From IMG/VR virus record IMGVR_UViG_3300033562_002694: DNA of 64,000 nt. The stretch is one strand, 5' to 3'. This DNA comes from a virus. The notes beneath the pieces were generated by a model, which saw only the letters and a list, made by a program, of their open reading frames with translations, was not told where the DNA came from and ran no database searches. Numbering within the stretch: position 1 is the stretch's first letter; the number at the start of each line of letters is the position of its first letter. The position numbers were made by a program, and so were the translations under genes. Shown piece after piece: positions 3,089 to 60,214 of this stretch.

Positions 3089-3553
3089 ATGAAACAAGAA
3101 AAACTCAAAATATTATTGGTTTTATTATTTTTAATAATTGGTGTTAATTATTTCCCTAACGAAATAAATAAACTTCAATTAAAAACTAATGATGAACTAA
3201 TCGAAATTGAAAAAGAAAAAGAATGGAATTATTTGATATTGTCAATAATCCATATTGAATCAAAGGGGGATAATTTTGCTATTGGGCAATTAAATTCTAT
3301 TGGTTGTTTACAAATAACACCAATTTATGTAAAAGAAGTCAATCGAATTTTAAAAAATAATGAAATTTATAAAAAATATGAATTAATTGATCGATTATCA
3401 AGAAAAAAATCTATCGAAATGTTCAATATTATGAATAATCATTATAATCCGAATAAAAATATTAACAAAGCAATAAAAATGCATAATCCTCGTGCTCCAA
3501 AATCATATCGAAATAAAATCCTGATCCATATGACAAATTTATACAATCTATAA
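3089..3553 (+). CDS. SLT-like lytic transglycosylase with N-terminal membrane anchor
   Basis: IIHIESKG (catalytic Glu) and SIGCLQIT motifs; hydrophobic N-terminus. Confidence 0.75.
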   Translation: MKQEKLKILLVLLFLIIGVNYFPNEINKLQLKTNDELIEIEKEKEWNYLILSIIHIESKGDNFAIGQLNSIGCLQITPIYVKEVNRILKNNEIYKKYELIDRLSRKKSIEMFNIMNNHYNPNKNINKAIKMHNPRAPKSYRNKILIHMTNLYNL

Positions 3554-3574
3554 ATTAGTATTTTTATGGATATA
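3547..3574 (+). promoter_or_regulatory. Phage bipartite promoter-like motif
   Basis: TCTATA-N15-GGATATA upstream of ORF 3594. Confidence 0.6.
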
Positions 3575-5519: not shown

Positions 5520-5547
5520 CCTATATTGTATAATATTATGGGATATA
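5520..5547 (+). promoter_or_regulatory. Phage bipartite promoter-like motif
   Basis: CCTATA-N15-GGATATA. Confidence 0.7.
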
Positions 5548-8586: not shown

Positions 8587-8614
8587 CTTATATTTTAAAA
8601 AAAAAGTGGATATA
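8587..8614 (+). promoter_or_regulatory. Phage bipartite promoter-like motif
   Basis: CTTATA-N15-GGATATA preceded by TTTTGGTCTGAATG. Confidence 0.7.
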
Positions 8615-12364: not shown

Positions 12365-12392
12365 CCTATAACGATTTTAAATAATGGATATA
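12365..12392 (+). promoter_or_regulatory. Phage bipartite promoter-like motif
   Basis: CCTATA-N15-GGATATA. Confidence 0.7.
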
Positions 12393-14535: not shown

Positions 14536-14563
14536 CCTATATTATGTTTTTTAAAAGGATATA
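14536..14563 (+). promoter_or_regulatory. Phage bipartite promoter-like motif
   Basis: CCTATA-N15-GGATATA. Confidence 0.7.
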
Positions 14564-16306: not shown

Positions 16307-16379
16307 TGTCTGATAGTGTAATCGGTAACACGTCTGATTTTGGTTCAGAAGAGTTCAGGTTCGAGCCCTGATCGGACAA
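16307..16379 (+). tRNA. trnQ: tRNA-Gln (anticodon TTG)
   Basis: Acceptor TGTCTGA/TCGGACA, D arm GTGT/ACAC, anticodon arm TCTGA-TTTTGGT-TCAGA, T arm TCAGG-TTCGAGC-CCTGA; no encoded CCA. Confidence 0.93.
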
Positions 16380-16500
16380 CAAATTTAAATTTGTGCTGAA
16401 TTTGAATTTTTATTGATTATTTGTTTTGTTCTTACTTGAAAGAAAGGGGGTTGTTAATTCAATCCCCTTTTGTTGGTTTAAAAATTTTTTTGTCCGAATG

Positions 16501-16528
16501 CCTATTTTTTAAAAAAATAGTGGATATA
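16501..16528 (+). promoter_or_regulatory. Phage bipartite promoter-like motif
   Basis: CCTATT-N15-GGATATA. Confidence 0.7.
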
Positions 16529-18219: not shown

Positions 18220-18290
18220 TTCAGGCCAAAAATTATTTTTAATTTTTGGCCTGAATGCTTATATTTCCTAAAATTAGTGGATATATTATA
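18220..18290 (+). promoter_or_regulatory. Stem-loop plus promoter module, copy 1
   Basis: Hairpin ttcaggccaaaaatt...aatttttggcctgaa abutting CTTATA-N15-GGATATA (18258..18285). Confidence 0.7.
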
Positions 18291-19285: not shown

Positions 19286-19356
19286 TTCAGACCAAAAATT
19301 ATTTTTAATTTTTGGTCTGAATACTTATATTTTCTTAAAATAGTGGATATATTATA
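19286..19356 (+). promoter_or_regulatory. Stem-loop plus promoter module, copy 2
   Basis: Near-identical to 18220..18290 with a compensatory G-C to A-T stem change; promoter motif 19324..19351. Confidence 0.7.
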
Positions 19357-20392: not shown

Positions 20393-20420
20393 CCTATATT
20401 TTTTGAAAAAAGTGGATATA
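20393..20420 (+). promoter_or_regulatory. Phage bipartite promoter-like motif
   Basis: CCTATA-N15-GGATATA overlapping the 3' arm of a hairpin (20351..20394). Confidence 0.7.
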
Positions 20421-22761: not shown

Positions 22762-22789
22762 TATATCCACTTACTGGAATTAATATAGG
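22762..22789 (-). promoter_or_regulatory. Phage bipartite promoter-like motif (leftward)
   Basis: CCTATA-N15-GGATATA on the minus strand. Confidence 0.75.
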
Positions 22790-23297: not shown

Positions 23298-23325
23298 CCT
23301 ATATATATTTTTAAAAGTGGATATA
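23298..23325 (+). promoter_or_regulatory. Phage bipartite promoter-like motif (rightward)
   Basis: CCTATA-N15-GGATATA. Confidence 0.75.
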
Positions 23326-24543: not shown

Positions 24544-24570
24544 CCTATATTTTACGGTAAAAGTGGATAT
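24544..24570 (+). promoter_or_regulatory. Phage bipartite promoter-like motif
   Basis: CCTATA-N14-GGATATA. Confidence 0.65.
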
Positions 24571-24611
24571 ATATATTAAGAGTAAAATAATTTAATCTAA
24601 AATTTTCGATC

Positions 24612-25042: not shown

Positions 25043-25070
25043 CCTATATTTTTCAGTAAAAGTGGATATA
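25043..25070 (+). promoter_or_regulatory. Phage bipartite promoter-like motif
   Basis: CCTATA-N15-GGATATA. Confidence 0.7.
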
Positions 25071-31168: not shown

Positions 31169-31196
31169 TATATCCACATTTTTTTTACAATATAGG
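31169..31196 (-). promoter_or_regulatory. Phage bipartite promoter-like motif (leftward)
   Basis: CCTATA-N15-GGATATA on the minus strand. Confidence 0.7.
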
Positions 31197-31225: not shown

Positions 31226-31256
31226 AAATCCCCTAACAATTAAGTTAAGGGGATTT
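31226..31256 (-). terminator. Terminator hairpin
   Basis: aaatcccctaac...gttaaggggattt. Confidence 0.6.
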
Positions 31257-31283: not shown

Positions 31284-31784
31284 TTAAATTATAAATACCT
31301 TGTAATTTCTCAAAAGACCATCAATGAAATGTAATTTTATTTTATTTTCTTTAGTTATTATTGTTGGATAAACAATAGTACCTAAATCATCTTTTATTTG
31401 AATAATCAAATTATCTGTAATCCATAATGGATCAGTAACATTTGATATTTCAACAATAAAATTATCCAATCTTTCAATTTTATATGTAACTCCATTAATT
31501 GGCGGATAATTAATTATTTCTCCGACATTCATTATTTTTGAAATTACAATTGAAATTTTATTGACTTGAAGATTATTTATTATCAATGTACCCAAATCAT
31601 TTTTAACAAGATTATTAAGTCTTAAAAGATAAGCTTTTAATTTACTTAAATAAACTGGAAGAATAAGAAAATTTCGAACCAAAAGGAAAATATTGGTTTT
31701 TATTGAAGCTTTTCCATCAATATCTTCAAAAGTTAAATCATCCTGGAGAATAAAATCATCCAGTTCTTGATCAGTATATGGCAT
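31284..31784 (-). CDS. Hypothetical protein (possibly structural)
   Basis: 166-aa ORF. Confidence 0.65.
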   Translation of the reverse strand: MPYTDQELDDFILQDDLTFEDIDGKASIKTNIFLLVRNFLILPVYLSKLKAYLLRLNNLVKNDLGTLIINNLQVNKISIVISKIMNVGEIINYPPINGVTYKIERLDNFIVEISNVTDPLWITDNLIIQIKDDLGTIVYPTIITKENKIKLHFIDGLLRNYKVFII

Positions 31785-31790
31785 ATTTTC

Positions 31791-32129
31791 TTATCCTTTC
31801 TTGGATTTAAGTTCAAATTGTTTTGCCAAATTTTTTCTATCAGTTTCTGTTAAACTGTTATCTGAAACAGCAATGAATTTTTCAACAGATGAAATAAATT
31901 CTTCAACTGAATTTGAATTATCGAAATGCCATTTTAACCCAAATCGAGTATTTAATGGTACATTAATATTTGCCATAATAATTTCACAATCAAATACGAA
32001 TTGTTTGGATTTTGTTTTTAAAACAATTTCCAACAAATCATTATTAAATTCTTGTGTGATTACTTTGTCAGCTTGTTGTTCTGATTCGTTAAGATTAGAT
32101 GCAACAGGTTTGTTTATTTTTATATTCAT
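31791..32129 (-). CDS. Hypothetical protein (LNES motif)
   Basis: 112-aa ORF. Confidence 0.65.
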   Translation of the reverse strand: MNIKINKPVASNLNESEQQADKVITQEFNNDLLEIVLKTKSKQFVFDCEIIMANINVPLNTRFGLKWHFDNSNSVEEFISSVEKFIAVSDNSLTETDRKNLAKQFELKSKKG

Positions 32130-32140
32130 AATTTTAATTT

Positions 32141-34198
32141 TTAGTAATTTCTAAATGCTTGTGAAATTTCATCATCAAGAGGATTTTCATCAGTCGAATT
32201 ATAAATGTCACTAAGACGTTTTCCATCCGATAATAATTTATTCATTTCTTTTTGATTATCTGAATAAATTTCAGAAAGTTCCACTCTTTCTTTTGAAATT
32301 TCTGCTTCTTCCCGTTTGTTAGATAATGTCTTAATTGTTGCAGAATGTGCTTCACAATAATACATTAATCTTTGAAAACCAGCTTTAATTGTTGGATTTT
32401 CTTCCATAATCATTTTCAATTTTTTATCTAAACGTAGTTTTCGATCAGCAATTGCTGGTTGTGAAAATGGTTTTTTGAAAATACCGTTAGCTTTGTAATA
32501 ATCTGCTAATATGATACCAATTTCTGTTTGGGAATAAGTATTATCAGCAACTGATTTGTTTGCATCTAATGATTCGCGTTTAAATTCTAAACCATATAAC
32601 AAACGAAATAATTTATAATCGTATTTGTCAAATATTTTAAATTGAGTAGTTACAGTTTCACCTGTTGTTATATCAACTTTAGTTTCAAACATATTGAACA
32701 ATGCTTTCAAAGATTTCAAAAGATGTTCATATTCGTTTTTAACTTCAGCAAATGTTTCATCATTAATATCTGATTTATGTGAATTTGCCCACATATCTGA
32801 ATCTCCTCCTTCATCTCCTCCGGTCATTCTATCAAGAATATCTGATTCAGAAGAAACTCCAGGAATAGGTTGAAATTTATCTTCTAACCCATCAATTAAT
32901 GATTCAATAATTTCTGTTGGTAAATCTTTTAATTCAGGATTTAATCCTAAAAATTGTTCAAAACGTTTCTTTCTGTAAAAAACCATGTTTGCCATCGAAT
33001 TTTCACTAATAATACCAACAGAACCAAGTTCATATAAACCTTTTTTGATACTATTAACAACATATTGATTTGCAAAACCTGTAAAAGATACAGGTGAATC
33101 TTTGATTTTTTGAATTTTATACCATGCGTTAATAGCAATTGATAATCCCATCAAACCATAAGCAATTGCATCATCTATGTTGCGAAGCATATTTAACTTC
33201 CTGCATGAATTATAAGCAATTGCTTTCACATATTCAACATTTGCAGCGGCAAGCATTTCTTTTGGTTGTTTTTCATCAACAATTTCGAAATCAAAAATTT
33301 CATACATAACTGTTGTTATGTCTTCATTTCCTTTAAGTTTGCTTATTTCTGTAGATGCTTGAAATTTTACTTCATCAAGTTCTCTTTTTATTTTGTAAAT
33401 GTCTTCTTCTTCAACTTCTTCTTTCAAAGTTTTCAAAATATTACTTAAATTCATATTTTGAATTTCTTTAATCGAAATATGTGCTAAATCGGAAATATGA
33501 CCACACAAATTATCATATTCTTGTTGAAATGAAAATGTTGAATCAGTATCCAAAATATCATCAATGTCTAAAACATCTTCGATATTCAAAACATCATCAT
33601 AATCAAATTTATCAGCTATGTTGAGAATTTCTCTAAGTTCCTTAACTTTTGAAACTAAAGAATGCGGGTTTATTAATTGATATTGTTTTTCAAGATCTTT
33701 TCGTTTTGCTTTTAATTCTTTTAAAAGTTCGGAATTTCCAATTTTATTAATTCGTTCTTCTTTTTCTTTTTTCCAATCTTTTGTTTTGTAAAGTTTAACG
33801 AATTTACTACGAGTTGCAGTCAATTCCTGAATCATTATTCTTGTTTTTTCAGCTAAATCTTTTTTACCAATTGCCTTATAATTTTTAAATTCGGCAAATA
33901 AAAGATCAATTTGAATTGTTAATGTTTTATACTGAGGTGATTTTTTCAGATAACTTTCTAATTTCTTTTTTGCATTACTTGTTAATGCGTCAGAAGCAGT
34001 AGGTAAAGTCCAATTTTTCATACTATTTTCAGGAGAAACCGGAGAGGTATCTTTCATCTGATTTTGAATAGCAAAAAATCTTTTTCTGCTTTTATCTTTT
34101 TTTTGTTGGTTTGAATCTTTTGATGCAAACAAATCATCATTTTCTTCAGGAAAATTTGCTCCATCAAGATAGTCATCCAAATCAAGGATATTTGCCAT
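32141..34198 (-). CDS. Large sigma-70-like transcription factor
   Basis: Region 2-like ANVEYVKAIAY...IDDAIAYGLMGLSIAINAW...SFTGFANQYVVNSIKKGL; region 4-like YKLFRLLYGL...YSQTEIG...FSQPAIADRKLRLDKKLK; acidic N-terminus. Confidence 0.7.
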   Translation of the reverse strand: MANILDLDDYLDGANFPEENDDLFASKDSNQQKKDKSRKRFFAIQNQMKDTSPVSPENSMKNWTLPTASDALTSNAKKKLESYLKKSPQYKTLTIQIDLLFAEFKNYKAIGKKDLAEKTRIMIQELTATRSKFVKLYKTKDWKKEKEERINKIGNSELLKELKAKRKDLEKQYQLINPHSLVSKVKELREILNIADKFDYDDVLNIEDVLDIDDILDTDSTFSFQQEYDNLCGHISDLAHISIKEIQNMNLSNILKTLKEEVEEEDIYKIKRELDEVKFQASTEISKLKGNEDITTVMYEIFDFEIVDEKQPKEMLAAANVEYVKAIAYNSCRKLNMLRNIDDAIAYGLMGLSIAINAWYKIQKIKDSPVSFTGFANQYVVNSIKKGLYELGSVGIISENSMANMVFYRKKRFEQFLGLNPELKDLPTEIIESLIDGLEDKFQPIPGVSSESDILDRMTGGDEGGDSDMWANSHKSDINDETFAEVKNEYEHLLKSLKALFNMFETKVDITTGETVTTQFKIFDKYDYKLFRLLYGLEFKRESLDANKSVADNTYSQTEIGIILADYYKANGIFKKPFSQPAIADRKLRLDKKLKMIMEENPTIKAGFQRLMYYCEAHSATIKTLSNKREEAEISKERVELSEIYSDNQKEMNKLLSDGKRLSDIYNSTDENPLDDEISQAFRNY

Positions 34199-34337: not shown

Positions 34338-34365
34338 TATTTCCTTTTTTTTCTTAAAATATAGG
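34338..34365 (-). promoter_or_regulatory. Variant promoter-like motif upstream of the sigma-like gene
   Basis: CCTATA-N15-GGAAATA on the minus strand. Confidence 0.5.
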
Positions 34366-34393: not shown

Positions 34394-35974
34394 TTATGTA
34401 CGTAATCTTGGTGAAGTATTTTTATTGATTGTGTCGGTATTTTTGCTTGTGGGATTTTCTTCGTTTCCTCCCTGATTGATATTTGCTGGTGGTTCTACCG
34501 TTGTTGTTGTCACAGATTTTACTCCTTCAGCTATAAAATCATATGATTGATCCAAAGCATTATCGATTTCTTTTGCACTATAACCGAAAAAACTTCTTGC
34601 TGTATTTGAAACATTTTTTGCGTTTGAAGCAACATTGACTGTTTTTGGAGCATAATAAATACGATGTTTCCCCATATTAAACATCATTTCAACCCCTTCT
34701 CTGCCACGATTTTGTCCTGGTTTCAATTTTACTTTTACTTGCATAAGTGTTGGAAAATCACCATAACTTAAAGAATCCGTAGGGAAACTAAAATCAACAC
34801 CCATACAGATTAAATTTCCTAAAGTCATTGTTGGATTTAACGGATTACCAATAGTTAAATGCCAAAATCCTGTAGGTTCTCCACTTAAAAGACTATTCAT
34901 TGTCAAAATTCCTGGTCTTCCAACTTTGTCCAAAATTTTACCCAAAGCCATTGCAAATCCACCTGTCATTGCTGTTTTTAATGCATCAATTGCAGAACCT
35001 TTTTTCGCAAAAGTATTGATAAAACCTTTCAAACTATTAATACCCCCATCTAAAATTTTATCCATATCATCACTATTCAGATATTGATATTGTTTATAAA
35101 ATTTTGAAGGTCTTTCACCTATCCAATATCGAGCTCCTGGCCAAAATTTAGCATTATTGAAAGTAGTTGCCAAAATATTACCAATAAGGTCTTTCATTGC
35201 ATATTCGGGACTTCTACCATTTATGCTTCTCAATTCATAATCAAATGTTATTTCAAATTCTTTTGTAAATTCTAATCCAACATCACGAATATTTGTGTTT
35301 GTTATTGAATCAACAGGACCATAAACCTTATTTTGATCAGCTTTTGGGTCCAACATATTAGCATTATCACCTCGTAAAGTATTTTTATACAATTCAGGAT
35401 CGAAAAAACTACCAGCTTTTTTCATGAAACCAGACAATCCTGACTGTTCTCCTTGCATTGTTGCCTGTTCCATTTCAGCAGTTAATTCTTTCCATTTCAT
35501 TCCATAACTAAAGGAAAGTAATTCTTCAAGTTTATTTACTTCTTGTGAAGTATATGTGACCATTCTTGCGATATCAGGTTCTCCTTGAGCTTCTTTATCC
35601 CAAATATTATCTGTACAAGGAAATGGATATCTTCGTAATGTTATCAATCGATTGATTGGAAATCCAAGATTTTTACAATATAAAAAATCATCGGCATCAT
35701 ATTCCATGGCCAATGTGTCTAATTTGCAAAGATCTGAAAATGTTCTTACTTGAAATAATTCTTTTTTTGAAGGAATATCACTTTCCAAATAAGGAAAATC
35801 ATTAGCAAGTTTAATTAAATGTAACTTGTTAATGACTGAAGTTGTTATTTGACCTGAAGTAAGTTTTTCTTTTAAACCAGGTAAATCAGTTCCTTTTGGT
35901 ACGGCAATATTTGTTGCTTTCTCATAATTTCCTGGAATTACTTCATCATCAATATATTTGGTTGGAGTTGCCAT
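34394..35974 (-). CDS. Putative tail/baseplate structural protein
   Basis: WHLTIGNPLNP..GNLI..F.FP..GDFPT.MQVKVKLKPG pattern reminiscent of tube-fold proteins; position near the structural module. Confidence 0.45.
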   Translation of the reverse strand: MATPTKYIDDEVIPGNYEKATNIAVPKGTDLPGLKEKLTSGQITTSVINKLHLIKLANDFPYLESDIPSKKELFQVRTFSDLCKLDTLAMEYDADDFLYCKNLGFPINRLITLRRYPFPCTDNIWDKEAQGEPDIARMVTYTSQEVNKLEELLSFSYGMKWKELTAEMEQATMQGEQSGLSGFMKKAGSFFDPELYKNTLRGDNANMLDPKADQNKVYGPVDSITNTNIRDVGLEFTKEFEITFDYELRSINGRSPEYAMKDLIGNILATTFNNAKFWPGARYWIGERPSKFYKQYQYLNSDDMDKILDGGINSLKGFINTFAKKGSAIDALKTAMTGGFAMALGKILDKVGRPGILTMNSLLSGEPTGFWHLTIGNPLNPTMTLGNLICMGVDFSFPTDSLSYGDFPTLMQVKVKLKPGQNRGREGVEMMFNMGKHRIYYAPKTVNVASNAKNVSNTARSFFGYSAKEIDNALDQSYDFIAEGVKSVTTTTVEPPANINQGGNEENPTSKNTDTINKNTSPRLRT

Positions 35975-41642: not shown

Positions 41643-42659
41643 TCAATATGTGAAACCATTGTTATCAATACCATTAAAAAAAGATTGTGTTTTAAATCCT
41701 GCACTACCTTGATAAAATGTATTACCTTGTTTTGCATGTTTTTTTAAAAGTTGTTGAGAAACAAGAACTTCTTCAAAAAATTTATCTTTTTGTTTTAAAT
41801 CTTTATCTGAAGCTTTTTTTAATTTGTTTTCGATTTTTTTCTCATCAGGAGATTCGTTAGTTTCTAATATTTTTTCATCTTTTTTATCCGTAGCTTTTTC
41901 TTCTTTGGAAACAGTTTTCTTTTTTGTTGATTCGTTTAAATCATTTAAAAACCATTCATAAAAACAAAACTGAGTTTCATTTAGTTGTGTGTATTCAGTA
42001 TATTTATCATCCAAACTTAAAAAGTCTTTTTCATAAATAATACCACTAAAACCTGTTTTATTTTTTGAAATTTCTTGAAGAAATTTTTGTGATTCATTTA
42101 ACTGTTTAAATTCCAAAAGAGCTTCTGCAAATCCAGGATGATAAACCAAATCAAATGTTGTTAATAATTTTACTTTACAATTGAATGTTCCATCAGAATT
42201 TTGTTTTTCTTCTCCAGCAGCTCTGGCAGAAACAGCTAATTGTCCACCCGATTTAACTATTTCTTGTGCAATTCGTCCTTTTTCAGTATCTAAAAGTATT
42301 AAAACACCAAAAACTTTCTTTTGCTTTTCATCATACCAAACATCAAGTATTTTATGCGATACATTATTGGAATTTATAGCATAACCTGAAGGATGTTCTA
42401 ATTCACCATAAACACCTTTTGAAGAAAATATTTGTTTTTTCAGTATTTGTAACATTTCCAAATAAGTTGGAACGTCATAATACCTTTTGTTATTATTTGG
42501 GGTAATATTTGATAAATCGGCAAAACAGCCTTGTAAAACAATCCCCTTATACAATGAACCAGTTGTTGGATCCATCATATTTGCTTTCAAATCTCCATCT
42601 TCTACTTGAATTAATGGAATTTGACTGGATTCAATATATAAAAACTTGGAATCTATCAT
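41643..42659 (-). CDS. Prohead protease (T4 gp21-like)
   Basis: NKRYY, GELEHP, NVSHKI, AVSARAAG, TFDLVYHPGF motifs. Confidence 0.9.
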   Translation of the reverse strand: MIDSKFLYIESSQIPLIQVEDGDLKANMMDPTTGSLYKGIVLQGCFADLSNITPNNNKRYYDVPTYLEMLQILKKQIFSSKGVYGELEHPSGYAINSNNVSHKILDVWYDEKQKKVFGVLILLDTEKGRIAQEIVKSGGQLAVSARAAGEEKQNSDGTFNCKVKLLTTFDLVYHPGFAEALLEFKQLNESQKFLQEISKNKTGFSGIIYEKDFLSLDDKYTEYTQLNETQFCFYEWFLNDLNESTKKKTVSKEEKATDKKDEKILETNESPDEKKIENKLKKASDKDLKQKDKFFEEVLVSQQLLKKHAKQGNTFYQGSAGFKTQSFFNGIDNNGFTY

Positions 42660-43431: not shown

Positions 43432-45075
43432 TTAAAAGTTTTTGTCATCTGTTTTCGTGATATTTTCTTCTTCGATAATTTCTTCTTCAACAATTTCTTC
43501 TTCATCTTTAGTTTCTTCAATTAAAACTGTTTCGTCTGCAAATCCCAACATTTTGTTTTGAATTTTTCTTTCTTCTTCCATTGAATCCAATTGTTCTTTA
43601 GTAAAATCAAGATAATTTTTGACAATCCAACCAATTGGTACTGCTTTTCTTGCAACTCCATTAACATCTTCAAGTTCACCAAATTCAGCAATACTTGTTG
43701 CTAATTCGATTTTCTTTTGCATTACTTCAATTTCGGCAAGTTTATCATATTCGTTAAATGCAAGCCATTGCATTTTAATTGAATCAAGCAAAGAAAGATC
43801 AATACCAATTTCAATTTCCTTTAAAGTTAATTGAATAATAATTGGTTTCATAAACATCTGATTCAATAATTTACGAATCATGTTTATGAATTTAGCGAAA
43901 TTTACTTCAATTTTTCGTAAACTTGAAACATCAGTAAACCCCCAGGAATCACTCGAATTAGGGTCAATTCTATCGTAAGGAATATCAGTATCTTTCCAAA
44001 ATAATTTTTCCCAATATTGTAATGAATCAACTTCTGTTAAATCTGGACCGTTTGAATTTATTTCTTCGATTTCAGGACTTCCAGAAGCAACAGTTTCAGC
44101 AGTAAAAAATTCCCTATAACCACTATTATTTGGTTGATTATTAAATTTGACAACTCCATCATCTCCAAAAGTGAAATGATTTATATATTGATTTTTTGAT
44201 TCCGTAAGTTTTTGGACAGCTTCTGTTCTTGCAACATCTCCCATCGCAAGTTTAATATGCATTCTTACTTGAGATTTCGCAGCAAACCAAAGAATTTTTG
44301 ATGTTTGCATCGAACGCATAATATTAAATGACATTCGAAGTTTATCAACATAACTTATATAACCATAATCAAATTTATTCCATTCAAGCAATATGATTTG
44401 ATTTTCATTTAAAATTCTTTGTTTTCCATTATTATCTGTTAAGGATTTTTGTACAAAATATACATAATCTCCTTCTTTGAATTTCTGAATAGATGAAGGA
44501 TCAATTGGAATTACTCCAATTATATCTTTGGGATTTTTTAGATTATCGTAAATAAGTTCAAATGCTAATTTACCTGTTATAATAAATTCTTTAACCGTAT
44601 CAATTAATCCATCTTCCTTTAGTTGATAAAATTGATATAATTGCGGAAAAAATACTTGGTTCAAATATTCATCAATTGCTTTTGCAATTTCTTGTTTATC
44701 AGGAGGAACTAAAGTAAAATTTATTTTTGGAAATACTGGATATTTGTTTGTTTCAGCATCTATAATAACTGTTTCATTTGCTAATATATTTACAGCTTTT
44801 TTAATTTCATTATTTTCTGCAAATAAAAGTAAATCATTTCGATAATTAATATTTGTTAATGGAGAAAATGCGAAAGTATTCCGATAACGAATATCAGGAT
44901 TAAACAATAAAGTATTTCCATTTGTGAAATATATTGGATCCGATGCAGAACCAACCGCATTTTTTTGAGCTTTTTTGTCAATTTTATCAGAAGTATTGGC
45001 AAGCAATATCTTTTTAGATATTGTTTTTTCAATATTCCGAGCTCCCAATATGTTGATTCCGTTAGTTAATTTCAT
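43432..45075 (-). CDS. Portal protein (T4 gp20-like)
   Basis: EIKKAVNILANE, GKLAFE, IPIDP, YVDKL..FNIMRSMQ, LYWEKLF...IPYDRI, IEVNFAKFI..IR. Confidence 0.85.
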   Translation of the reverse strand: MKLTNGINILGARNIEKTISKKILLANTSDKIDKKAQKNAVGSASDPIYFTNGNTLLFNPDIRYRNTFAFSPLTNINYRNDLLLFAENNEIKKAVNILANETVIIDAETNKYPVFPKINFTLVPPDKQEIAKAIDEYLNQVFFPQLYQFYQLKEDGLIDTVKEFIITGKLAFELIYDNLKNPKDIIGVIPIDPSSIQKFKEGDYVYFVQKSLTDNNGKQRILNENQIILLEWNKFDYGYISYVDKLRMSFNIMRSMQTSKILWFAAKSQVRMHIKLAMGDVARTEAVQKLTESKNQYINHFTFGDDGVVKFNNQPNNSGYREFFTAETVASGSPEIEEINSNGPDLTEVDSLQYWEKLFWKDTDIPYDRIDPNSSDSWGFTDVSSLRKIEVNFAKFINMIRKLLNQMFMKPIIIQLTLKEIEIGIDLSLLDSIKMQWLAFNEYDKLAEIEVMQKKIELATSIAEFGELEDVNGVARKAVPIGWIVKNYLDFTKEQLDSMEEERKIQNKMLGFADETVLIEETKDEEEIVEEEIIEEENITKTDDKNF

Positions 45076-52288: not shown

Positions 52289-52654
52289 TTAATTTTTATC
52301 ATTTGAAAATAAAACTTCAATTGAAATTTGTTTATTTTTTCCTCTTGTGATGAAATTAAAATGGATTCGTAAATCATTTGAAATCATAGTGGTATAAAAG
52401 GAAAAAACATTATCACTAACAGCAGGATTAAATTTATCCCATTTGCGCCAAGCTTCTGAAACTGCGTAATTAACACAAGCATTCAAATCGCATGTATTTT
52501 TATAATTAAATGTAGTGGCAAAATGTTTTGCAATTTTAGTAAATAAAACAACCAATTTTTCTGTCGGTTTACCATTTTCAATTGACGTATTATATTCGGC
52601 GAATAATTCTTTTGGTGTTACGTATATTTTGGATTTGACAGATTTTTCGATCAT
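52289..52654 (-). CDS. Late sigma factor-like protein (T4 gp55-like)
   Basis: DLNACVNYAVSEAWRKWDKFNP...NVFSFYTTMISN (sigma region 2 only). Confidence 0.7.
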   Translation of the reverse strand: MIEKSVKSKIYVTPKELFAEYNTSIENGKPTEKLVVLFTKIAKHFATTFNYKNTCDLNACVNYAVSEAWRKWDKFNPAVSDNVFSFYTTMISNDLRIHFNFITRGKNKQISIEVLFSNDKN

Positions 52655-54113: not shown

Positions 54114-55391
54114 TCAAATTGATTTACTCATATTAATTTGTTTTACTCCTAATAAGAAATGTTCAATATCTGTATCATCAATTAAATCTTTTTCGTATGA
54201 ATATCTCAATAAAGGTTTAATTAATGTTGCATTTATCATTCTATTCCAATCGGGTTCAGGTAAATTTTTTACTGTATTTATATCTAAATCGTCAGGAATA
54301 CCAATAACCTTATATTTAGAATTTTCATTACAATAATAATAATTCATTTTTTGTCCATCAAATGCTGGTTTATAATCATTATGAAGTTTATTTTCTTCAA
54401 TAAAATTTAACCAAGAAATTGCAATCTGCATTTGTATATGGTTTTTGTCGGACGACCATATATTTGTTTCTGGATCTTTTGTAATTGATTTTAATCCACT
54501 TACTGAAGTAATTAAATAAATAAAATCTTTTTCTTTTCGTTGTTTAATATAAGCGATAAGTTTTAGACATTCACCTCGTAACATTGGTAAATCATATTTT
54601 TCTAATAAATATTTATCAACCAATTTACTTAATATTTTTTTTGCTCTTGGAGCAGAACTTCCTCGTCTTAATTCAACACCTTTAAATTTTATTTTGGGTT
54701 TGTCAAGTAATAATCCATCTTCCCAAATAGATGTCATTATATATTTTTTCTTTTTGATAAATGCACATTTACGAGTTGTTACTTCGTGAACCATACGTAA
54801 ATGTCCTATTTTTCCATTTCGAAAAATACAATCATTTTCAATTGTTGTTTTTATTATATTATTTATAAATTTCGATACAATAAAAGTTCCAAATTCAGCT
54901 AATTCTTTGTCAGAATCTGGAATACTAACAGTAGTTTTTTCGTCTATTTCAAGGAAAGAATAAATTTTGCCTAAATCAATATATCGAGAATCAGTATCAC
55001 CATAAACACATAAATCGAATGAAGTATCTGGAACATAATTGGTGAATTTTCTGAGTTTTGTAACGGTTGGATAAAATTCCTGTATTATTGATAATTCTTT
55101 TTCTCCCCAGTTTACAAAAAACTTATTTATTGCACGATCAACTATAACTCCAAAATGTTTTCCAGTAGCACAAATATCTTCCGCAATATCAACATCGTGT
55201 AATGAATAATAAATTGATGCTGAAACTCCATATAATGAATTAGCATCAGCTTTCACAACAAGTTGTAAATTTTTGTATTGTTTTTGTATATCTTCTGCCT
55301 TTAGGATTAATGACCGAATCTCATCATCAGAATATTTGGATAAATCGATTGTTTCATTATATAATTCATTAAAATTGTCAGAAAAATCCAT
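54114..55391 (-). CDS. Family B DNA polymerase, C-terminal subunit
   Basis: KADANSLYG (motif B), YGDTDS (motif C), KKKY, FKGVE. Confidence 0.9.
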   Translation of the reverse strand: MDFSDNFNELYNETIDLSKYSDDEIRSLILKAEDIQKQYKNLQLVVKADANSLYGVSASIYYSLHDVDIAEDICATGKHFGVIVDRAINKFFVNWGEKELSIIQEFYPTVTKLRKFTNYVPDTSFDLCVYGDTDSRYIDLGKIYSFLEIDEKTTVSIPDSDKELAEFGTFIVSKFINNIIKTTIENDCIFRNGKIGHLRMVHEVTTRKCAFIKKKKYIMTSIWEDGLLLDKPKIKFKGVELRRGSSAPRAKKILSKLVDKYLLEKYDLPMLRGECLKLIAYIKQRKEKDFIYLITSVSGLKSITKDPETNIWSSDKNHIQMQIAISWLNFIEENKLHNDYKPAFDGQKMNYYYCNENSKYKVIGIPDDLDINTVKNLPEPDWNRMINATLIKPLLRYSYEKDLIDDTDIEHFLLGVKQINMSKSI

Positions 55392-55422: not shown

Positions 55423-55451
55423 GGAAAACCGAATTAAATTCGGTTTTCCTT
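55423..55451 (-). terminator. Terminator hairpin inside the polymerase gap
   Basis: aaggaaaaccgaa-tta-aattcggttttcctt inverted repeat. Confidence 0.6.
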
Positions 55452-56383
55452 TAATTATCTCCGATATATTCGCTTATATCAAGCGAATCAATGACATGAT
55501 CCATTGCTGAATCATCAATATTTATTGAATTTTCATTTATTTTTGAAGACAAACACCAAATAATTGAACCAGCGAATTTTGTACCTAAAATAACTTTCTG
55601 TTCATTTTCGTTTGTGTAAATACTGAAAGTGTGATTTCCAGTCATTACAAAATCAGATTTTAAAATATTGAAAGAAATATTTTCGGTAATTGAAAGTTTT
55701 TGTGTCAGAAGAAAACTAACATTAAAAACCTTATCATTAACGATTATTTTATTTTGTTCAATATCTACGGTAAATGTTAAAAAAGCAGTATTATTTGCGG
55801 TTGATTTATGAAGTTTTTTGATTAATCTTTTAATTTCCTGAATTTGTGTATCAGTCAGAATGAATTCTTCCATATTTGGTAATGGAGTACATTCTTTAAT
55901 TATTTGAGAATAATCATCAATTTTGTTTGATATTAATTCTTCTGTTGTTAATGTAAAAGTTGTTGTCAATGGTGAATTACCTTCTGATTTTCCAGATATT
56001 GTAATATTTGCCGCTTGATATTTGTTGTTTACATTTTGGAGAATAAATTCCAAATCAACCATATCAGTATTATGTACTGATAGATATTTATGAAATAATT
56101 CTCCTTTCAAAATGTAAAAATTAAAGACAGGAAAATTAAGCGCTTGTTTTGGAATTACATCAAGTTCAATTACATCAGTAGAATCTTTATCATTCAATAA
56201 ATTATTGAGAGGAATCGACCATAATTTCATAAATGATCTTGTAGAAGAAAATGAACATGCTCTGATTATTGTATCACTAAATTCCAACATTAATTGATTA
56301 TCCACAATTAACGATTGTTCAAGTAATTTTCTGAAAACGTTCAACCGAAAATTTGAAATTTTTATTGTTTTTATTTCATCCAT
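55451..56383 (-). CDS. Putative sliding clamp (gp45/PCNA-like)
   Basis: 310 aa, two-domain alpha/beta pattern, adjacent to polymerase; motif support weak. Confidence 0.45.
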   Translation of the reverse strand: MDEIKTIKISNFRLNVFRKLLEQSLIVDNQLMLEFSDTIIRACSFSSTRSFMKLWSIPLNNLLNDKDSTDVIELDVIPKQALNFPVFNFYILKGELFHKYLSVHNTDMVDLEFILQNVNNKYQAANITISGKSEGNSPLTTTFTLTTEELISNKIDDYSQIIKECTPLPNMEEFILTDTQIQEIKRLIKKLHKSTANNTAFLTFTVDIEQNKIIVNDKVFNVSFLLTQKLSITENISFNILKSDFVMTGNHTFSIYTNENEQKVILGTKFAGSIIWCLSSKINENSINIDDSAMDHVIDSLDISEYIGDN

Positions 56384-56444: not shown

Positions 56445-57020
56445 TTATCCAAATAATTTCTTTAACAAAATTAAAACATCACTATCAAGTTTTGTAGATA
56501 TTCCGTATGAAATAAATTCATCATAAAAAAGATGTAATGTTTGTGGATTAATTTCTCCTTTTAAATGACGACCACAACTCAAAAACGAATAATTATTATT
56601 TGATTTAAGAAGAGCTTTTAATTCATCAATAAGTTCTTCATTTGTTTCTTCGTACTCTTCAGTATTGGCTTCGTTTTCTTCTGCGATTCTTGCTTCTTCT
56701 GCGATTCTTGCTTCTTCTGCGATTCTTGTTTCTTCTGCGATTCTTGCTTCTTCTGCGATTCTTGCTTCTTCCTCAAGTTTTGCTTCTTCTTCTGCAATTT
56801 TTAATTTTTCTTCGTCAATTATTAATTCAGTAACAACTGGAGTTTCTTCAACTGGAGTTTCTTCAACTGGAGTTTCTTCAACTGGAGTTTCTTCAACTGA
56901 AGTTTCTTCAACTGGAGTTTCAACTATTTTTTGCATTGTATCAAAAGTTTCTTCAATTTTTGTTTCTGTTTTTTTGAGAGCTTGTTTTGCCATTGTGTTT
57001 GTTTTTAAATTAATGAACAA
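56445..57020 (-). CDS. Acidic repeat protein (VEETP x5, AEEARI x~6)
   Basis: Tandem 15-bp and 18-bp coding repeats. Confidence 0.7.
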   Translation of the reverse strand: MFINLKTNTMAKQALKKTETKIEETFDTMQKIVETPVEETSVEETPVEETPVEETPVEETPVVTELIIDEEKLKIAEEEAKLEEEARIAEEARIAEETRIAEEARIAEEARIAEENEANTEEYEETNEELIDELKALLKSNNNYSFLSCGRHLKGEINPQTLHLFYDEFISYGISTKLDSDVLILLKKLFG

Positions 57021-57075: not shown

Positions 57076-57693
57076 TTAAAATTTTCCTGAACTTCCAAGT
57101 CCACCAATTCTATTTACTCGACGATTTATTATTTCCGGATTAATATCCCACATTTCTTCAGATATTTCTTCCATTTCTTCAATGAATTGACCTTTAATCA
57201 GAATTATTTGAGCTGTTTTTTCATTTGGTTCCAAAGTAATTGGTTTATCACTTAAAAGATGAATTTGAATGGTCATTCCATAAGTGAAATTTTCATCAAT
57301 TAAACCTTTAATCGAAGTAAATCTGTTGTTAAAATTAGAACTTTTTGAACGTAAATCAACATAATATCCTTCAGGAATTAAAATACCAATACCGGAAGGA
57401 ATATTAATATCATTATAAATTCGATATTTATTATTGAAATAACTTAAAATTTCAATACCATTTAAAAATATTGTAAATTCGGCAATCAAAGATTTCGTAT
57501 TAATATCTTCAATACCAGTTCTTGCAATTGTTCCTGGATTTTTTTCTAATAATGCATTAATAAATTCTCTTGTTGGTAGTGGCATATAAACATCAACACC
57601 AATACTGTGATAAAGAGCATTTTTTTCTTTTTCGTTCTGATTAAGTCCCAATGGTTCTTTAACAGGAAAAAATTTACGAAATTGTAATTTCAT
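57076..57693 (-). CDS. dut: dUTPase (trimeric type)
   Basis: GVDV, IPSGI, RSKSS, GLIDENF, AQII, RIGGLGSSG motifs. Confidence 0.88.
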   Translation of the reverse strand: MKLQFRKFFPVKEPLGLNQNEKEKNALYHSIGVDVYMPLPTREFINALLEKNPGTIARTGIEDINTKSLIAEFTIFLNGIEILSYFNNKYRIYNDINIPSGIGILIPEGYYVDLRSKSSNFNNRFTSIKGLIDENFTYGMTIQIHLLSDKPITLEPNEKTAQIILIKGQFIEEMEEISEEMWDINPEIINRRVNRIGGLGSSGKF

Positions 57694-57726: not shown

Positions 57727-59247
57727 TTAATTATTTGAAATTCTTTTGTTTAACTCATTTTTCAATTTCGGCAAAATATTCAAATAAATATCATTTGCAT
57801 GTCCTTGAAATATATTTCTTTGTGACAAAAGTTTCTTTTCGATTCGAGTATATAATGAGTCTGTTGTTACATCATAAATTCGACCTGTTGGAGCTAAAGC
57901 ATACCCCATTTTTTTGTATTTTAACCATTTTTGATTTTCTTCTTCGTTTATTGGAATACCATCATTATTGGTTTTTATTAAATCTATTTTTGCTTCAGGA
58001 CTTAATCCCATTGTAATCATTGCGTTTGGATAAAGTGCTTTATAATCTTCACCAATAACAGATTCAACAATCTTTTTTAATGGAGGTTTTACATAACCAC
58101 CAGCATACTTTCTTGCAACATTTTTTGTTTTTTCAGATGCTAACAAAAACCGATTATTACTTCTTAACTCTTGATAAACAAGTGCTTCGGAAATACTATT
58201 TTGTGATAATTTCAAATAAGGTACTCCAGTATAAAAAGACTGAAAAAAGTCAACAGTAAGTAAATTGGTTATTTTATGAATTAACATAACCAAAATCGTA
58301 TCTATGAAAGAATAACCAATAAATTTAAGATAATTTTCAACATATAATGTTCTCAAATTACCATCGTATTTTACTTTATGTAGTTTCAAAATTAGTTCCG
58401 CAATATTATCAAGCGAATAAGAACCAAGATTATTATAAATAAGTGAATTTTGAAACAAAAACATGTAATCTGCAATAACACGATGACTCGGAAGTTTTAA
58501 TTCTATTTTCGTGCTATCATTAATATCAATTGATTTATTTGTTAATTTTCTTGTTGGAGATGCTTTTTTAACATCGATACCTATTTTTTGACAACGATTG
58601 AAAATATATTGCCAATCATAAATTAAAAAATTCCACCCTATTGTTAAATGAAAATAATTATTGATACATTCAAGAAATACATTAAGCATTTCACTTTCAG
58701 TATCAAATATTCGAATATTATAATTATATTCATGTAAAACATAATGTTGTTTCAAAGAATCTTTGATAATACTATCAATATATCCTTTGTCTATATCATT
58801 TATTTCTGGATGAAGTGGATTTTTTACTATAAAGAGAATAGAATTTAATTCTTTATCGGTTATACATATCGATGTTATTGGATTTTCAGCTTTTTCTTGA
58901 TCAGAATATCCAAATTCATCTGTTGGCATAACTTCAATATCAACCGAAAATGGATTTGGTTCAGAAATTTTAGAAACTTTTTCATGAAAATCCGGATAAT
59001 TGGTTGGTATTTCATGCATGAAAAATTCATTCACATTATGGTGTGAAAAATATTTTGCACTTTCTGCTTTTATCGGACTGTTTTTAAAACTTCTTAAATC
59101 AGGTATTTTATTTGGGTCATATTCATCACATTCAACATATGAATAATATCCTTTTTTTAAGATTAGTTCTTCAACAGTTATTTGATTTTTATTGTCAACA
59201 TATGAAATATCGATTGCGTCTTTTTTCTGAGTGAATTCAATTATCAT
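57727..59247 (-). CDS. Family B DNA polymerase, N-terminal subunit (3'-5' exonuclease plus motif A)
   Basis: VDIEV (ExoI), GWNFLIYDWQYI (ExoII), YSLDNIA, YSFIDT (ExoIII), YAGGYV, DYKALYPNAM (motif A). Confidence 0.9.
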   Translation of the reverse strand: MIIEFTQKKDAIDISYVDNKNQITVEELILKKGYYSYVECDEYDPNKIPDLRSFKNSPIKAESAKYFSHHNVNEFFMHEIPTNYPDFHEKVSKISEPNPFSVDIEVMPTDEFGYSDQEKAENPITSICITDKELNSILFIVKNPLHPEINDIDKGYIDSIIKDSLKQHYVLHEYNYNIRIFDTESEMLNVFLECINNYFHLTIGWNFLIYDWQYIFNRCQKIGIDVKKASPTRKLTNKSIDINDSTKIELKLPSHRVIADYMFLFQNSLIYNNLGSYSLDNIAELILKLHKVKYDGNLRTLYVENYLKFIGYSFIDTILVMLIHKITNLLTVDFFQSFYTGVPYLKLSQNSISEALVYQELRSNNRFLLASEKTKNVARKYAGGYVKPPLKKIVESVIGEDYKALYPNAMITMGLSPEAKIDLIKTNNDGIPINEEENQKWLKYKKMGYALAPTGRIYDVTTDSLYTRIEKKLLSQRNIFQGHANDIYLNILPKLKNELNKRISNN

Positions 59248-59416: not shown

Positions 59417-60214
59417 TTATAAAATTTTATTTGCTTGAATTAAAATATCGGCAGTAACATTATCGAACGAACACAGAACATCTATATTCATCGAATCAAC
59501 AATTTCAAAAGGAGTTGGAATTATTTTATTATTAGATTCTTGTGGATTGATTATATCATATATCCTCATAAAACTAAAAATATAAGTTGAAGAAAATTGA
59601 TGGTTTATTCGATTTTTACCTTTCATTAAATTTACAGTAAAAATATTAAAACGATTAGACAAAACTAATGATAATGTCAAATCCAAATTAATAATTTTTT
59701 CTATAAAACTAACTGTACCAATTTTTACAATTTCTCCGGGTTCTTTCAAATTATTTGGCAATGAAATAAAATTATCATCAGTTGCAACCAAATATTTTCC
59801 AGCAAAATATTTCCAATTAAGTCCATCAAAAATAAATGTAATATCTAATGGTTTAACAGTAACAATATTTCCAGCAACTGAATTAGTTGCATTTAGAATA
59901 TTGTTTAAATTACCATAATTTATTTCTAAAACAGTTACTTGTTGAACTATTCCAGCAATTATAGCTTGTAATAAAGGAATTGGAGTTGTTAAATCTTTTC
60001 CAAAATAATAATGATTACCTATATTACCATTTATTTCTGATTCTTCAACAAAAAATATTAAACCATCATATCTTATTGATAAAGGCAATTCAGTATTTAT
60101 TGTCAATAAACTATTAACAATAAAACGTGAATCAATTGGTATATTTTTTGAAATACGAAAATTATTGAAAATTTCTCGTTCGGTTTTTCTATTTTCTATT
60201 GCAGATGTTTCCAT
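59417..60214 (-). CDS. Putative tail/virion structural protein
   Basis: 265-aa beta-rich ORF in a cluster with similar genes. Confidence 0.5.
   Translation of the reverse strand: METSAIENRKTEREIFNNFRISKNIPIDSRFIVNSLLTINTELPLSIRYDGLIFFVEESEINGNIGNHYYFGKDLTTPIPLLQAIIAGIVQQVTVLEINYGNLNNILNATNSVAGNIVTVKPLDITFIFDGLNWKYFAGKYLVATDDNFISLPNNLKEPGEIVKIGTVSFIEKIINLDLTLSLVLSNRFNIFTVNLMKGKNRINHQFSSTYIFSFMRIYDIINPQESNNKIIPTPFEIVDSMNIDVLCSFDNVTADILIQANKIL

Follow-up and report, generated by a model that had tools for sequence, protein, structure and literature searches.

The window analysed here is a stretch of 64,000 nucleotides from the IMG/VR virus record IMGVR_UViG_3300033562_002694, the DNA of an uncultured T4-like phage (27% G+C) from a microbial-mat metagenome. 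Its minus strand carries a gene for a large sigma-like protein, P0001, and the window holds 15 copies of a two-box promoter motif, CYTATA-N15-GGATATA, of which this protein may be the reader. The gene and the predicted segments of its product are laid out as follows:

32141..34198 (-): sigma-like gene P0001, 685 amino acids, ATG start, stop codon included
34124..34198 (-): acidic N-terminus, residues 1-25, with a family-conserved motif of the D-L-D-D-Y-L type
33869..34006 (-): helix superposing tentatively on sigma70 region 1.2, residues 65-110 (structure superposition)
33299..33868 (-): charged helical insert, residues 111-300, 39% charged
33014..33286 (-): sigma2 domain, regions 2.1-2.4, residues 305-395 (hhalign and fold)
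32894..33013 (-): small helical sigma3-like segment, residues 396-435 (superposition on sigma28, 1rp3_C)
32762..32893 (-): acidic low-confidence linker in the position of region 3.2, residues 436-479
32348..32761 (-): sigma4 domain with a beta-hairpin insert, residues 480-617 (fold model)
32144..32347 (-): charged tail, residues 618-685, ending in the conserved acidic motif N-P-L-D-D-E-I..F

An earlier sequence-only reading of this DNA had described a 685-residue open reading frame (ORF) with an acidic N-terminus and a long charged insert. Both features were found: residues 1-25 contain eight aspartates or glutamates and no lysine or arginine, and the insert is as highly charged as listed above. 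The conservation of this 2 kb frame in DNA of 27% G+C is far beyond chance. Homologues form 31 clusters at 35-70% identity, and the choice of start codon is backed by the N-terminal motif that they share. A family profile search of 1.84 billion representatives extended the family to 102 clusters, mostly of 600-850 residues.

Fold and family membership of P0001

Region 2 of P0001 is recognisable by sequence. When the family profile was aligned with hhalign to a single FliA-type sigma factor of 242 residues, the match had a probability of 96.3% (E 1.6e-9). With 22 aligned FliA-type sigmas as the target the probability was 95.9% (E 5e-9), and both alignments span 74-75 columns of region 2. The full-length AlphaFold model has a predicted local distance difference test (pLDDT) value of 66, and its top Foldseek matches are nearly all sigma chains. 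Residues 307-392 superpose on the N-terminal domain of SigE (SigE-NTD) with a Z of 11.1 and a root-mean-square deviation (r.m.s.d.) of 2.4 A over 78/78 residues at 23% identity, and on sigma28 with a Z of 11.3 and an r.m.s.d. of 2.4.

The C-terminal 146 residues were modelled alone from 75 sequences (pLDDT 87.5), and the model was compared with 48,161 chains in an unbiased search independent of Foldseek. Sigma4 domains took seven of the first eight ranks (Taq sigmaA, HrdB, Caulobacter sigma73, SigB, SigL, SigH and CnrH). The top match, sigma4 of Taq sigmaA, aligned over 86 residues with an r.m.s.d. of 2.6 and a Z of 7.3, a middling value for a helical domain. The recognition helix of this domain begins near Q580-P581. 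The region 2-like segment of the sequence-only reading (about 305-395) is thus confirmed by hhalign (E 5e-9) and by fold (Z 11), and its helix-turn-helix-like region 4 segment (about 480-617) by the fold comparison. That reading had made its proposal depend on the sigma2 and sigma4 folds, and the AlphaFold models contain both.

No folded region 1.1 is predicted; residues 1-61 are predicted to be disordered (pLDDT <50) and have no Pfam match. The model from 65 to 392, which includes the tentative region 1.2 helix, superposes on residues 97..451 of chain 7xya_F (Z 11.0, r.m.s.d. 3.2, 101 aligned). The charged insert occupies the place of the non-conserved region of group 1 sigmas, and no match to the E. 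coli non-conserved region was found in it. Downstream of sigma2, residues 304..433 of the model superpose on residues 2..152 of sigma28 (1rp3_C), and helices 399-434 match the start of sigma3 in sigma28 and WhiG. Two short acidic-hydrophobic motifs, one at each end of the protein (34124-34198 and 32144-32200, minus strand), are conserved family-wide; they may serve to dock a partner, to target the capsid or to act like region 1.1.

Binding to core polymerase was explored by co-folding. Residues 290-440 folded together with residues 200-360 of E. coli beta' (the clamp helices; E. coli stands in for the host) scored 0.49 against 0.01 for the best control, a pass that counts as weak: 58 of 80 solved complexes passed the mark, as did 2 of 110 mismatched pairs, and only 7 of the 80 solved complexes and both passing mismatches scored 0.60 or lower. 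Runs agreed on at least 59% of contacts, and the partner pLDDT was at least 59. The pass may reflect likeness to, or memory of, solved sigma-beta' complexes.

Standard models do not see this family. P0001 has no match in Pfam at E up to 1 and none in PHROGs at E up to 0.1, the gp55 profiles phrog_234 and phrog_12791 and the large-sigma profiles phrog_351 and phrog_1740 included, and a PDB sequence search with P0001 and its family profile found no match. No relative was found by tblastn of P0001 and two distant members against 50,697 phage records, nor among 185,579 prokaryote genomes; family members lie on viral or metagenome contigs only. Among the weakest matches of the family profile are a 242-residue protein that carries both Sigma70_r2 and Sigma70_r4 of Pfam, and larger proteins in which one or the other of these domains gives a weak match at the corresponding position. 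A distant member, P0120, aligns with phrog_351, 'RNA polymerase sigma factor', from sigma2 through sigma4, and the distant relatives P0120, P0112 and P0113 match the phrog_351 or phrog_1740 profiles at E 3e-7 to 4e-4. The Atlas feature neighbours of P0001 include viral sigma clusters.

From the region 2 homology and the sigma2 and sigma4 folds, P0001 is therefore a member of the sigma70 family in the broad sense, and neither an RpoD orthologue nor a relative of gp55. The sequence conservation of group 1 (RpoD/SigA), with Sigma70_r2, r3 and r4 above threshold, was not found in P0001. The earlier description 'RpoD-sized' is accordingly apt for the size of the protein and not for its ancestry. 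The family is new in the sense that it is invisible to standard models, and new in its insert before sigma2, its sigma4 hairpin and its conserved acidic termini, in always closing the head-gene module, and in a candidate promoter class with natural helix/box covariation.

The promoter motif and its covariation with the recognition helix

The motif CYTATA-N15-GGATATA has a rigid 15-base-pair (bp) gap. GGATATA occurs 21 times in the window against 7.8 expected, and 15 of these copies carry C/T-Y-T-A-T-A/T beginning exactly 21 bp upstream. Among words that contain G or C, the motif alone is enriched in the intergenic DNA of the window. Copies are intergenic or near gene starts, in the orientation of the downstream gene, and about 15 transcription units, made up of non-structural genes, have a member of the class in front of them:

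3547..3574 (+): motif copy, TCTATA-N15-GGATATA
5520..5547 (+): motif copy
8587..8614 (+): motif copy
12365..12392 (+): motif copy
14536..14563 (+): motif copy
16501..16528 (+): motif copy
18258..18285 (+): motif copy
19324..19351 (+): motif copy
20393..20420 (+): motif copy
22762..22789 (-): motif copy
23298..23325 (+): motif copy
24544..24571 (+): motif copy
25043..25070 (+): motif copy
31169..31196 (-): motif copy just past the terminator of the sigma unit
34365..34338 (-): variant CCTATA-N15-GGAAATA, 140 nucleotides before the sigma ATG, one mismatch in the downstream box
59559..59586 (-): motif copy within the ORF 59417-60214, 318 nucleotides upstream of the gene for the N-terminal part of the family B DNA polymerase (PolB)

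The last copy was absent from the list of the sequence-only reading; the variant upstream of the sigma gene, which that reading had reported, was recovered. If TATAWW within GGATATAWW is taken as a -10 hexamer, the spacer would be 17-18 bp and the G-G-A would fall at the extended -10 place, a geometry that would suit a two-domain sigma. The T4 late boxes TATAAATA and AATAAATA showed no enrichment in the window, and a sigma70 consensus scan around the sigma gene found no more sites than in shuffles. A scan of the collection with a 14-base form of the motif gave, among the matches listed, only single chance-like ones and was uninformative.

We fetched 16 related loci which, after duplicate contigs from two collections were merged, represent ten distinct relatives, or 11 lineages with the window. 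The sigma protein evolves fast, with 37-49% identity compared with 63-86% for the capsid protein. Three whole relative contigs carry 26, 18 and 15 motif copies, and the reversed-pattern control gave 0. Across the lineages, sigma2 and GGATAT are kept in all, and the upstream box is lineage-specific. Where the recognition helix starts with S-Q-P-A (the window, L004, L012 and L014), position 3 of the upstream box is T in 50 of 50 sites, with L014 having G instead of C at position 1. In the six lineages whose helix starts with Q-S-A/S, position 3 is C in 42 of 55 sites. Both helix/box states occur on each side of the deepest split of the sigma tree (support 93/94).

The clearest switch is found in a relative of 43% G+C, L003, on a contig of 162 kb. 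Here, sigma2 is conserved, but hardly a position of the recognition helix has kept its residue. No CYYATA form occurs in the 162 kb, which instead carry 13 copies of GGGT-N14-16-GGATA[TC], nine of them with N15 (shuffles: mean 1.5, maximum 5; reversed control 0). These copies lie upstream of genes in the same 21-bp register, with GGGT replacing YATA. On the same contig (G004), a conserved (T)CATGA(T/A)AC stands just upstream of the GGGT box, for example at 104578, 135278, 149386 and 154450; it may parallel the TTTTGGYCTGAATG segment before the upstream box in the window.

If a P0001-type protein reads both boxes, one would expect the constant box to go with the conserved sigma2 and the variable box with the variable sigma4 helix, as is seen here. 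The covariation across 11 lineages supports the role of candidate motif reader that the sequence-only reading had assigned to P0001. We conclude that P0001 is probably a divergent sigma70-family factor that steers the host core polymerase to the promoter class CYYATA-N15-GGATATA. Core binding, the assignment of boxes to domains and the timing are what we infer, as follows. P0001 would bind the host core RNA polymerase through sigma2 and direct it to this phage-own promoter class. Sigma2, perhaps with the sigma3-like helix, would read the invariant GGATAT(A) box, and the sigma4 recognition helix would read the upstream box, 21 bp before GGATAT(A). A gp55-like factor encoded in the same window would then serve the late genes, giving a two-sigma programme.

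This second factor, which the sequence-only reading had also pointed out, is a minimal late sigma of the gp55 type:

52289..52654 (-): gp55-like minimal late sigma, 121 amino acids (phrog_234, E 2e-6; phrog_12791, E 1e-5)

Its best match, phrog_234, is labelled 'late sigma transcription factor'; a PDB sequence search with the protein gave chance-level matches only. Nothing convincing emerged as a clamp-binding-like tail common to P0001 and the polymerase or the gp55-like protein. Both factors of the two-sigma cascade proposed earlier are encoded in the window, and the order in which they would act is an inference.

The L004 contig (G001) is 160,875 bp long, has direct terminal repeats and is apparently complete. 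Of its 26 motif copies, 24 share a strand and fall in the stretch from 57 to 158 kb, so that the motif would drive most of one replication/early arm.

Gene neighbourhood and alternative readings

Gene order around the sigma gene is fixed in 10 of 10 relatives: portal, protease, scaffold, capsid, small genes, a 526-residue protein, sigma, a 112-residue gene and a 166-residue gene. Sigma is always the last large gene of this head-gene module. No terminator was found between the module and the sigma gene, and one follows the 166-residue gene:

31791..32129 (-): 112-residue gene, always directly downstream of sigma in relatives; no family match
31284..31784 (-): 166-residue gene, the second of two partner genes conserved after sigma; no family match
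31230..31251 (-): hairpin resembling a terminator, at the end of the sigma/112/166 unit

PDB sequence searches with the 112- and 166-residue proteins gave chance-level matches only. The 166-residue protein has an acidic, D-rich start and weak dockerin-like (calcium-binding repeat) matches at E 0.002, and it could be a sigma partner. Directly upstream of sigma, the 526-residue protein (34394-35974, minus strand) is kept at 59-72% identity in all relatives, far above sigma, and has no Pfam, PHROG or other family match. No convincing late box is shared upstream of the capsid gene across the relatives.

By portal, the nearest cultured phage is Sphingomonas phage PAU (29% identity), followed by Tenacibaculum, Chryseobacterium and Prevotella (Lak) phages. 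A Shine-Dalgarno core at -22..-4 occurs in only 3 of 59 window genes, and leaders are A-rich; near absence of Shine-Dalgarno sequences is a Bacteroidota trait (PMC6847099). Because the nearest cultured relatives mostly infect Bacteroidota and Shine-Dalgarno cores are few, the host probably belongs to this group. The sigmaA box of Bacteroidota, located at -7, is TAnnTTTG (PMC9723704), and the window motif is unlike it.

The sigma gene itself is preceded by its own motif class in about 3 of the 11 lineages, namely the window (in degenerate form), L008 and L014. Elsewhere, a different conserved box, GTAYATTTGTAYWGRGAAA, which contains TAnnTTTG, stands upstream of sigma (L002:9826, L004:9715, L006:2508, L010:9709 and L015:9526; degenerate in L012). 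It occurs nowhere else in the loci of those relatives and is absent from the window. Judged from its sequence, the GTAYATTTGTAYWGRGAAA box may be a host-read promoter of the sigma gene, which would fit host-driven early expression. As the own motif is degenerate in the window and restricted to about three lineages, with another box elsewhere, autoregulation is not conserved among relatives, and the autoregulation suggested by the sequence-only reading is weak.

Several observations weigh against P0001 as the reader of both boxes. Besides the middling Z of its C-terminal domain, region 4 is insignificant by sequence (local hhalign of C-terminal profiles against FliA region 4, E 0.1), and Foldseek finds nothing significant for this domain; the sigma4 assignment consequently rests on fold and context. 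The covariation is based on 11 related lineages, the S-type lineages have both C and T at box position 3, and the sigma tree is weakly resolved, so that its well-supported branches force only one change. A host sigma of unusual specificity, or a separate phage activator on the upstream box, may be involved instead. The gene also comes last in the head module and, in this phage, has a degenerate copy of its own motif before it, an arrangement that does not in itself explain where the first sigma molecules come from.

The alternative that survives best holds P0001 to be a true sigma that serves another promoter class which escaped detection, such as middle or late genes, while the motif promoters are read by the host housekeeping sigma, possibly with a phage activator on the upstream box, as MotA acts in T4. 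The abundant early promoters of T4 are read by host sigma70, a precedent for such a class; TATAWW in the downstream box looks like a -10 hexamer, the head module that holds the sigma gene appears to be late, and a different conserved box precedes it in five to six relatives. We consider this explanation a minority possibility. Intergenic DNA yielded no other enriched motif, and T4-type late boxes are not enriched. The upstream box also drifts in step with the phage sigma4 helix, up to the full switch to GGGT, which is unexpected for a host -35 element; this covariation speaks against a host sigma as reader of the upstream box. Finally, the motif is dissimilar to the TAnnTTTG box (PMC9723704) of the likeliest host group.

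A different answer to the origin of the first molecules is that sigma is made late with the head proteins, packaged in the virion and injected with the DNA, so that the phage, whose early promoters bear no likeness to those of its probably Bacteroidota host, could start its own programme without a host sigma. The sigma4 helix and the -35-like box would then be free to co-evolve in each lineage, because both are phage-encoded. The constant position of the gene as last large member of the head module speaks for packaging, as does the bootstrapping problem that follows from a sigma promoter of the self-read class in three lineages. We nevertheless regard packaging as unlikely. No prohead-protease cut motif ([AGS]xE or [LI]xE) follows the N-terminal motif of P0001, and family-wide the cut motif is not enriched (13 of 28, compared with 9.9 +/- 2.3 in shuffles). 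The TAnnTTTG-containing box before the sigma gene in five to six relatives fits ordinary host-driven early expression.

Quite improbable, in our judgement, is that P0001 has a sigma-like fold and takes no part in initiation, either shutting off the host as an inhibitor or decoy that binds core polymerase, or regulating the motif by binding to its DNA. Such a role would suit its strong divergence and lack of Pfam and PHROG matches, its long extra segments and its conserved terminal motifs. The tryptophan pair typical of region 2.3 in primary sigmas such as that of E. coli is likewise not evident in the aligned segment. Both promoter-reading domains are conserved with a linker of typical length over about 100 clusters, however, and the motif has two boxes at sigma-type spacing, with covariation that involves the sigma4 helix. 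That P0001 is no sigma relative at all, and is instead a helical phage protein, perhaps a virion component, with a chance resemblance, is most improbable: the lack of direct Pfam, PHROGs or PDB sequence matches, the head-module location and the whole-model pLDDT of 66 are outweighed by an hhalign E of 5e-9 to genuine sigmas, a profile search that reaches the 242-residue Sigma70_r2/r4 protein, and two independent domain-level fold matches that are both sigma factors.

Related systems and phage context

P0001 as a motif-reading sigma belongs to a kind of protein already known, because group 2 jumbo-phage sigmas, the large sigma families of PHROGs and the SPO1 cascade have been described. The T4-like 'group 2' jumbo phages all encode two sigma types, one minimal and one close to cellular RpoD, plus gp33 (Iyer and colleagues, PMC7824862). 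They resemble the window phage in having a gp23-type capsid, a family B polymerase and no RNA polymerase of their own, and their RpoD-like sigmas resemble P0001 in sigma2 and sigma4 and in coexisting with a minimal gp55-type sigma. From the large phage sigmas of phrog_351 and phrog_1740, P0001 differs in having no direct match, whereas its distant relative P0120 does align with phrog_351. Compared with all of these, P0001 stands out by 190 inserted residues ahead of sigma2, a hairpin within sigma4, conserved acidic termini and a location at the end of the head module.

The closest functional analogue of the role proposed for P0001 is the cascade of Bacillus phage SPO1, whose gp28 and gp33/34 are phage sigmas that replace the host sigma on host core and act at phage-specific two-box promoters in a timed cascade (PMC13401047). 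SPO1 is not T4-like, and no sequence relationship of its sigmas to P0001 was found. These sigmas are small, of about 200-220 residues. The group 3 sigmas (FliA/sigma28 and WhiG) are the best profile and fold partners of P0001 region 2; they have about 240 residues and lack its N-terminal 300 residues and its tail, and their likeness in region 4 is undetectable by sequence.

The likeness to T4 lies in the T4-type portal, prohead protease, head-closure and gp2-like genes and in the gp55-like factor of the window. Transcription in T4 uses gp55, gp33 and gp45 for late genes and MotA and AsiA for middle genes. T4 remodels host sigma70 and has no sigma4-bearing sigma of its own, whereas the window phage encodes a two-domain sigma. 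T4-like phages beyond the cultured groups may use an SPO1-like sigma cascade in place of the host-sigma remodelling of T4.

That phages redirect host RNA polymerase with sigma factors of their own is textbook knowledge but, to our knowledge, few of these factors have a known promoter. In the P0001 family, a full-length sigma that had escaped annotation comes with a sharply delimited promoter class, and natural variants tie the first residues of the sigma4 helix to bases of the -35-like box, a directly testable recognition code. The family is also a possible source of orthogonal sigma/promoter pairs, perhaps for Bacteroidota, where such tools are scarce.

The window also carries the following genes:

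43432-45075: T4-type portal
41643-42659: prohead protease
57727-59247 and 54114-55391 (-): family B DNA polymerase in two genes

A head-closure gene and a gp2-like end protector are also present, together with genes for an NAD ligase, a helicase and a ribonucleotide reductase that appears to contain an intein. In Sphingomonas phage PAU, no gene comparable to that of P0001 was found after the capsid module. The two PolB genes are separated by three small genes (55451-56383, 56445-57020 and 57076-57693). The large subunit of ribonucleotide reductase (32-2473, plus strand) appears to carry an intein-like insertion, with a weak Intein_splicing match (E 5e-5, residues 174-217), and a tRNA-Gln gene (anticodon TTG) lies among early-type genes at 16307-16380 on the plus strand.

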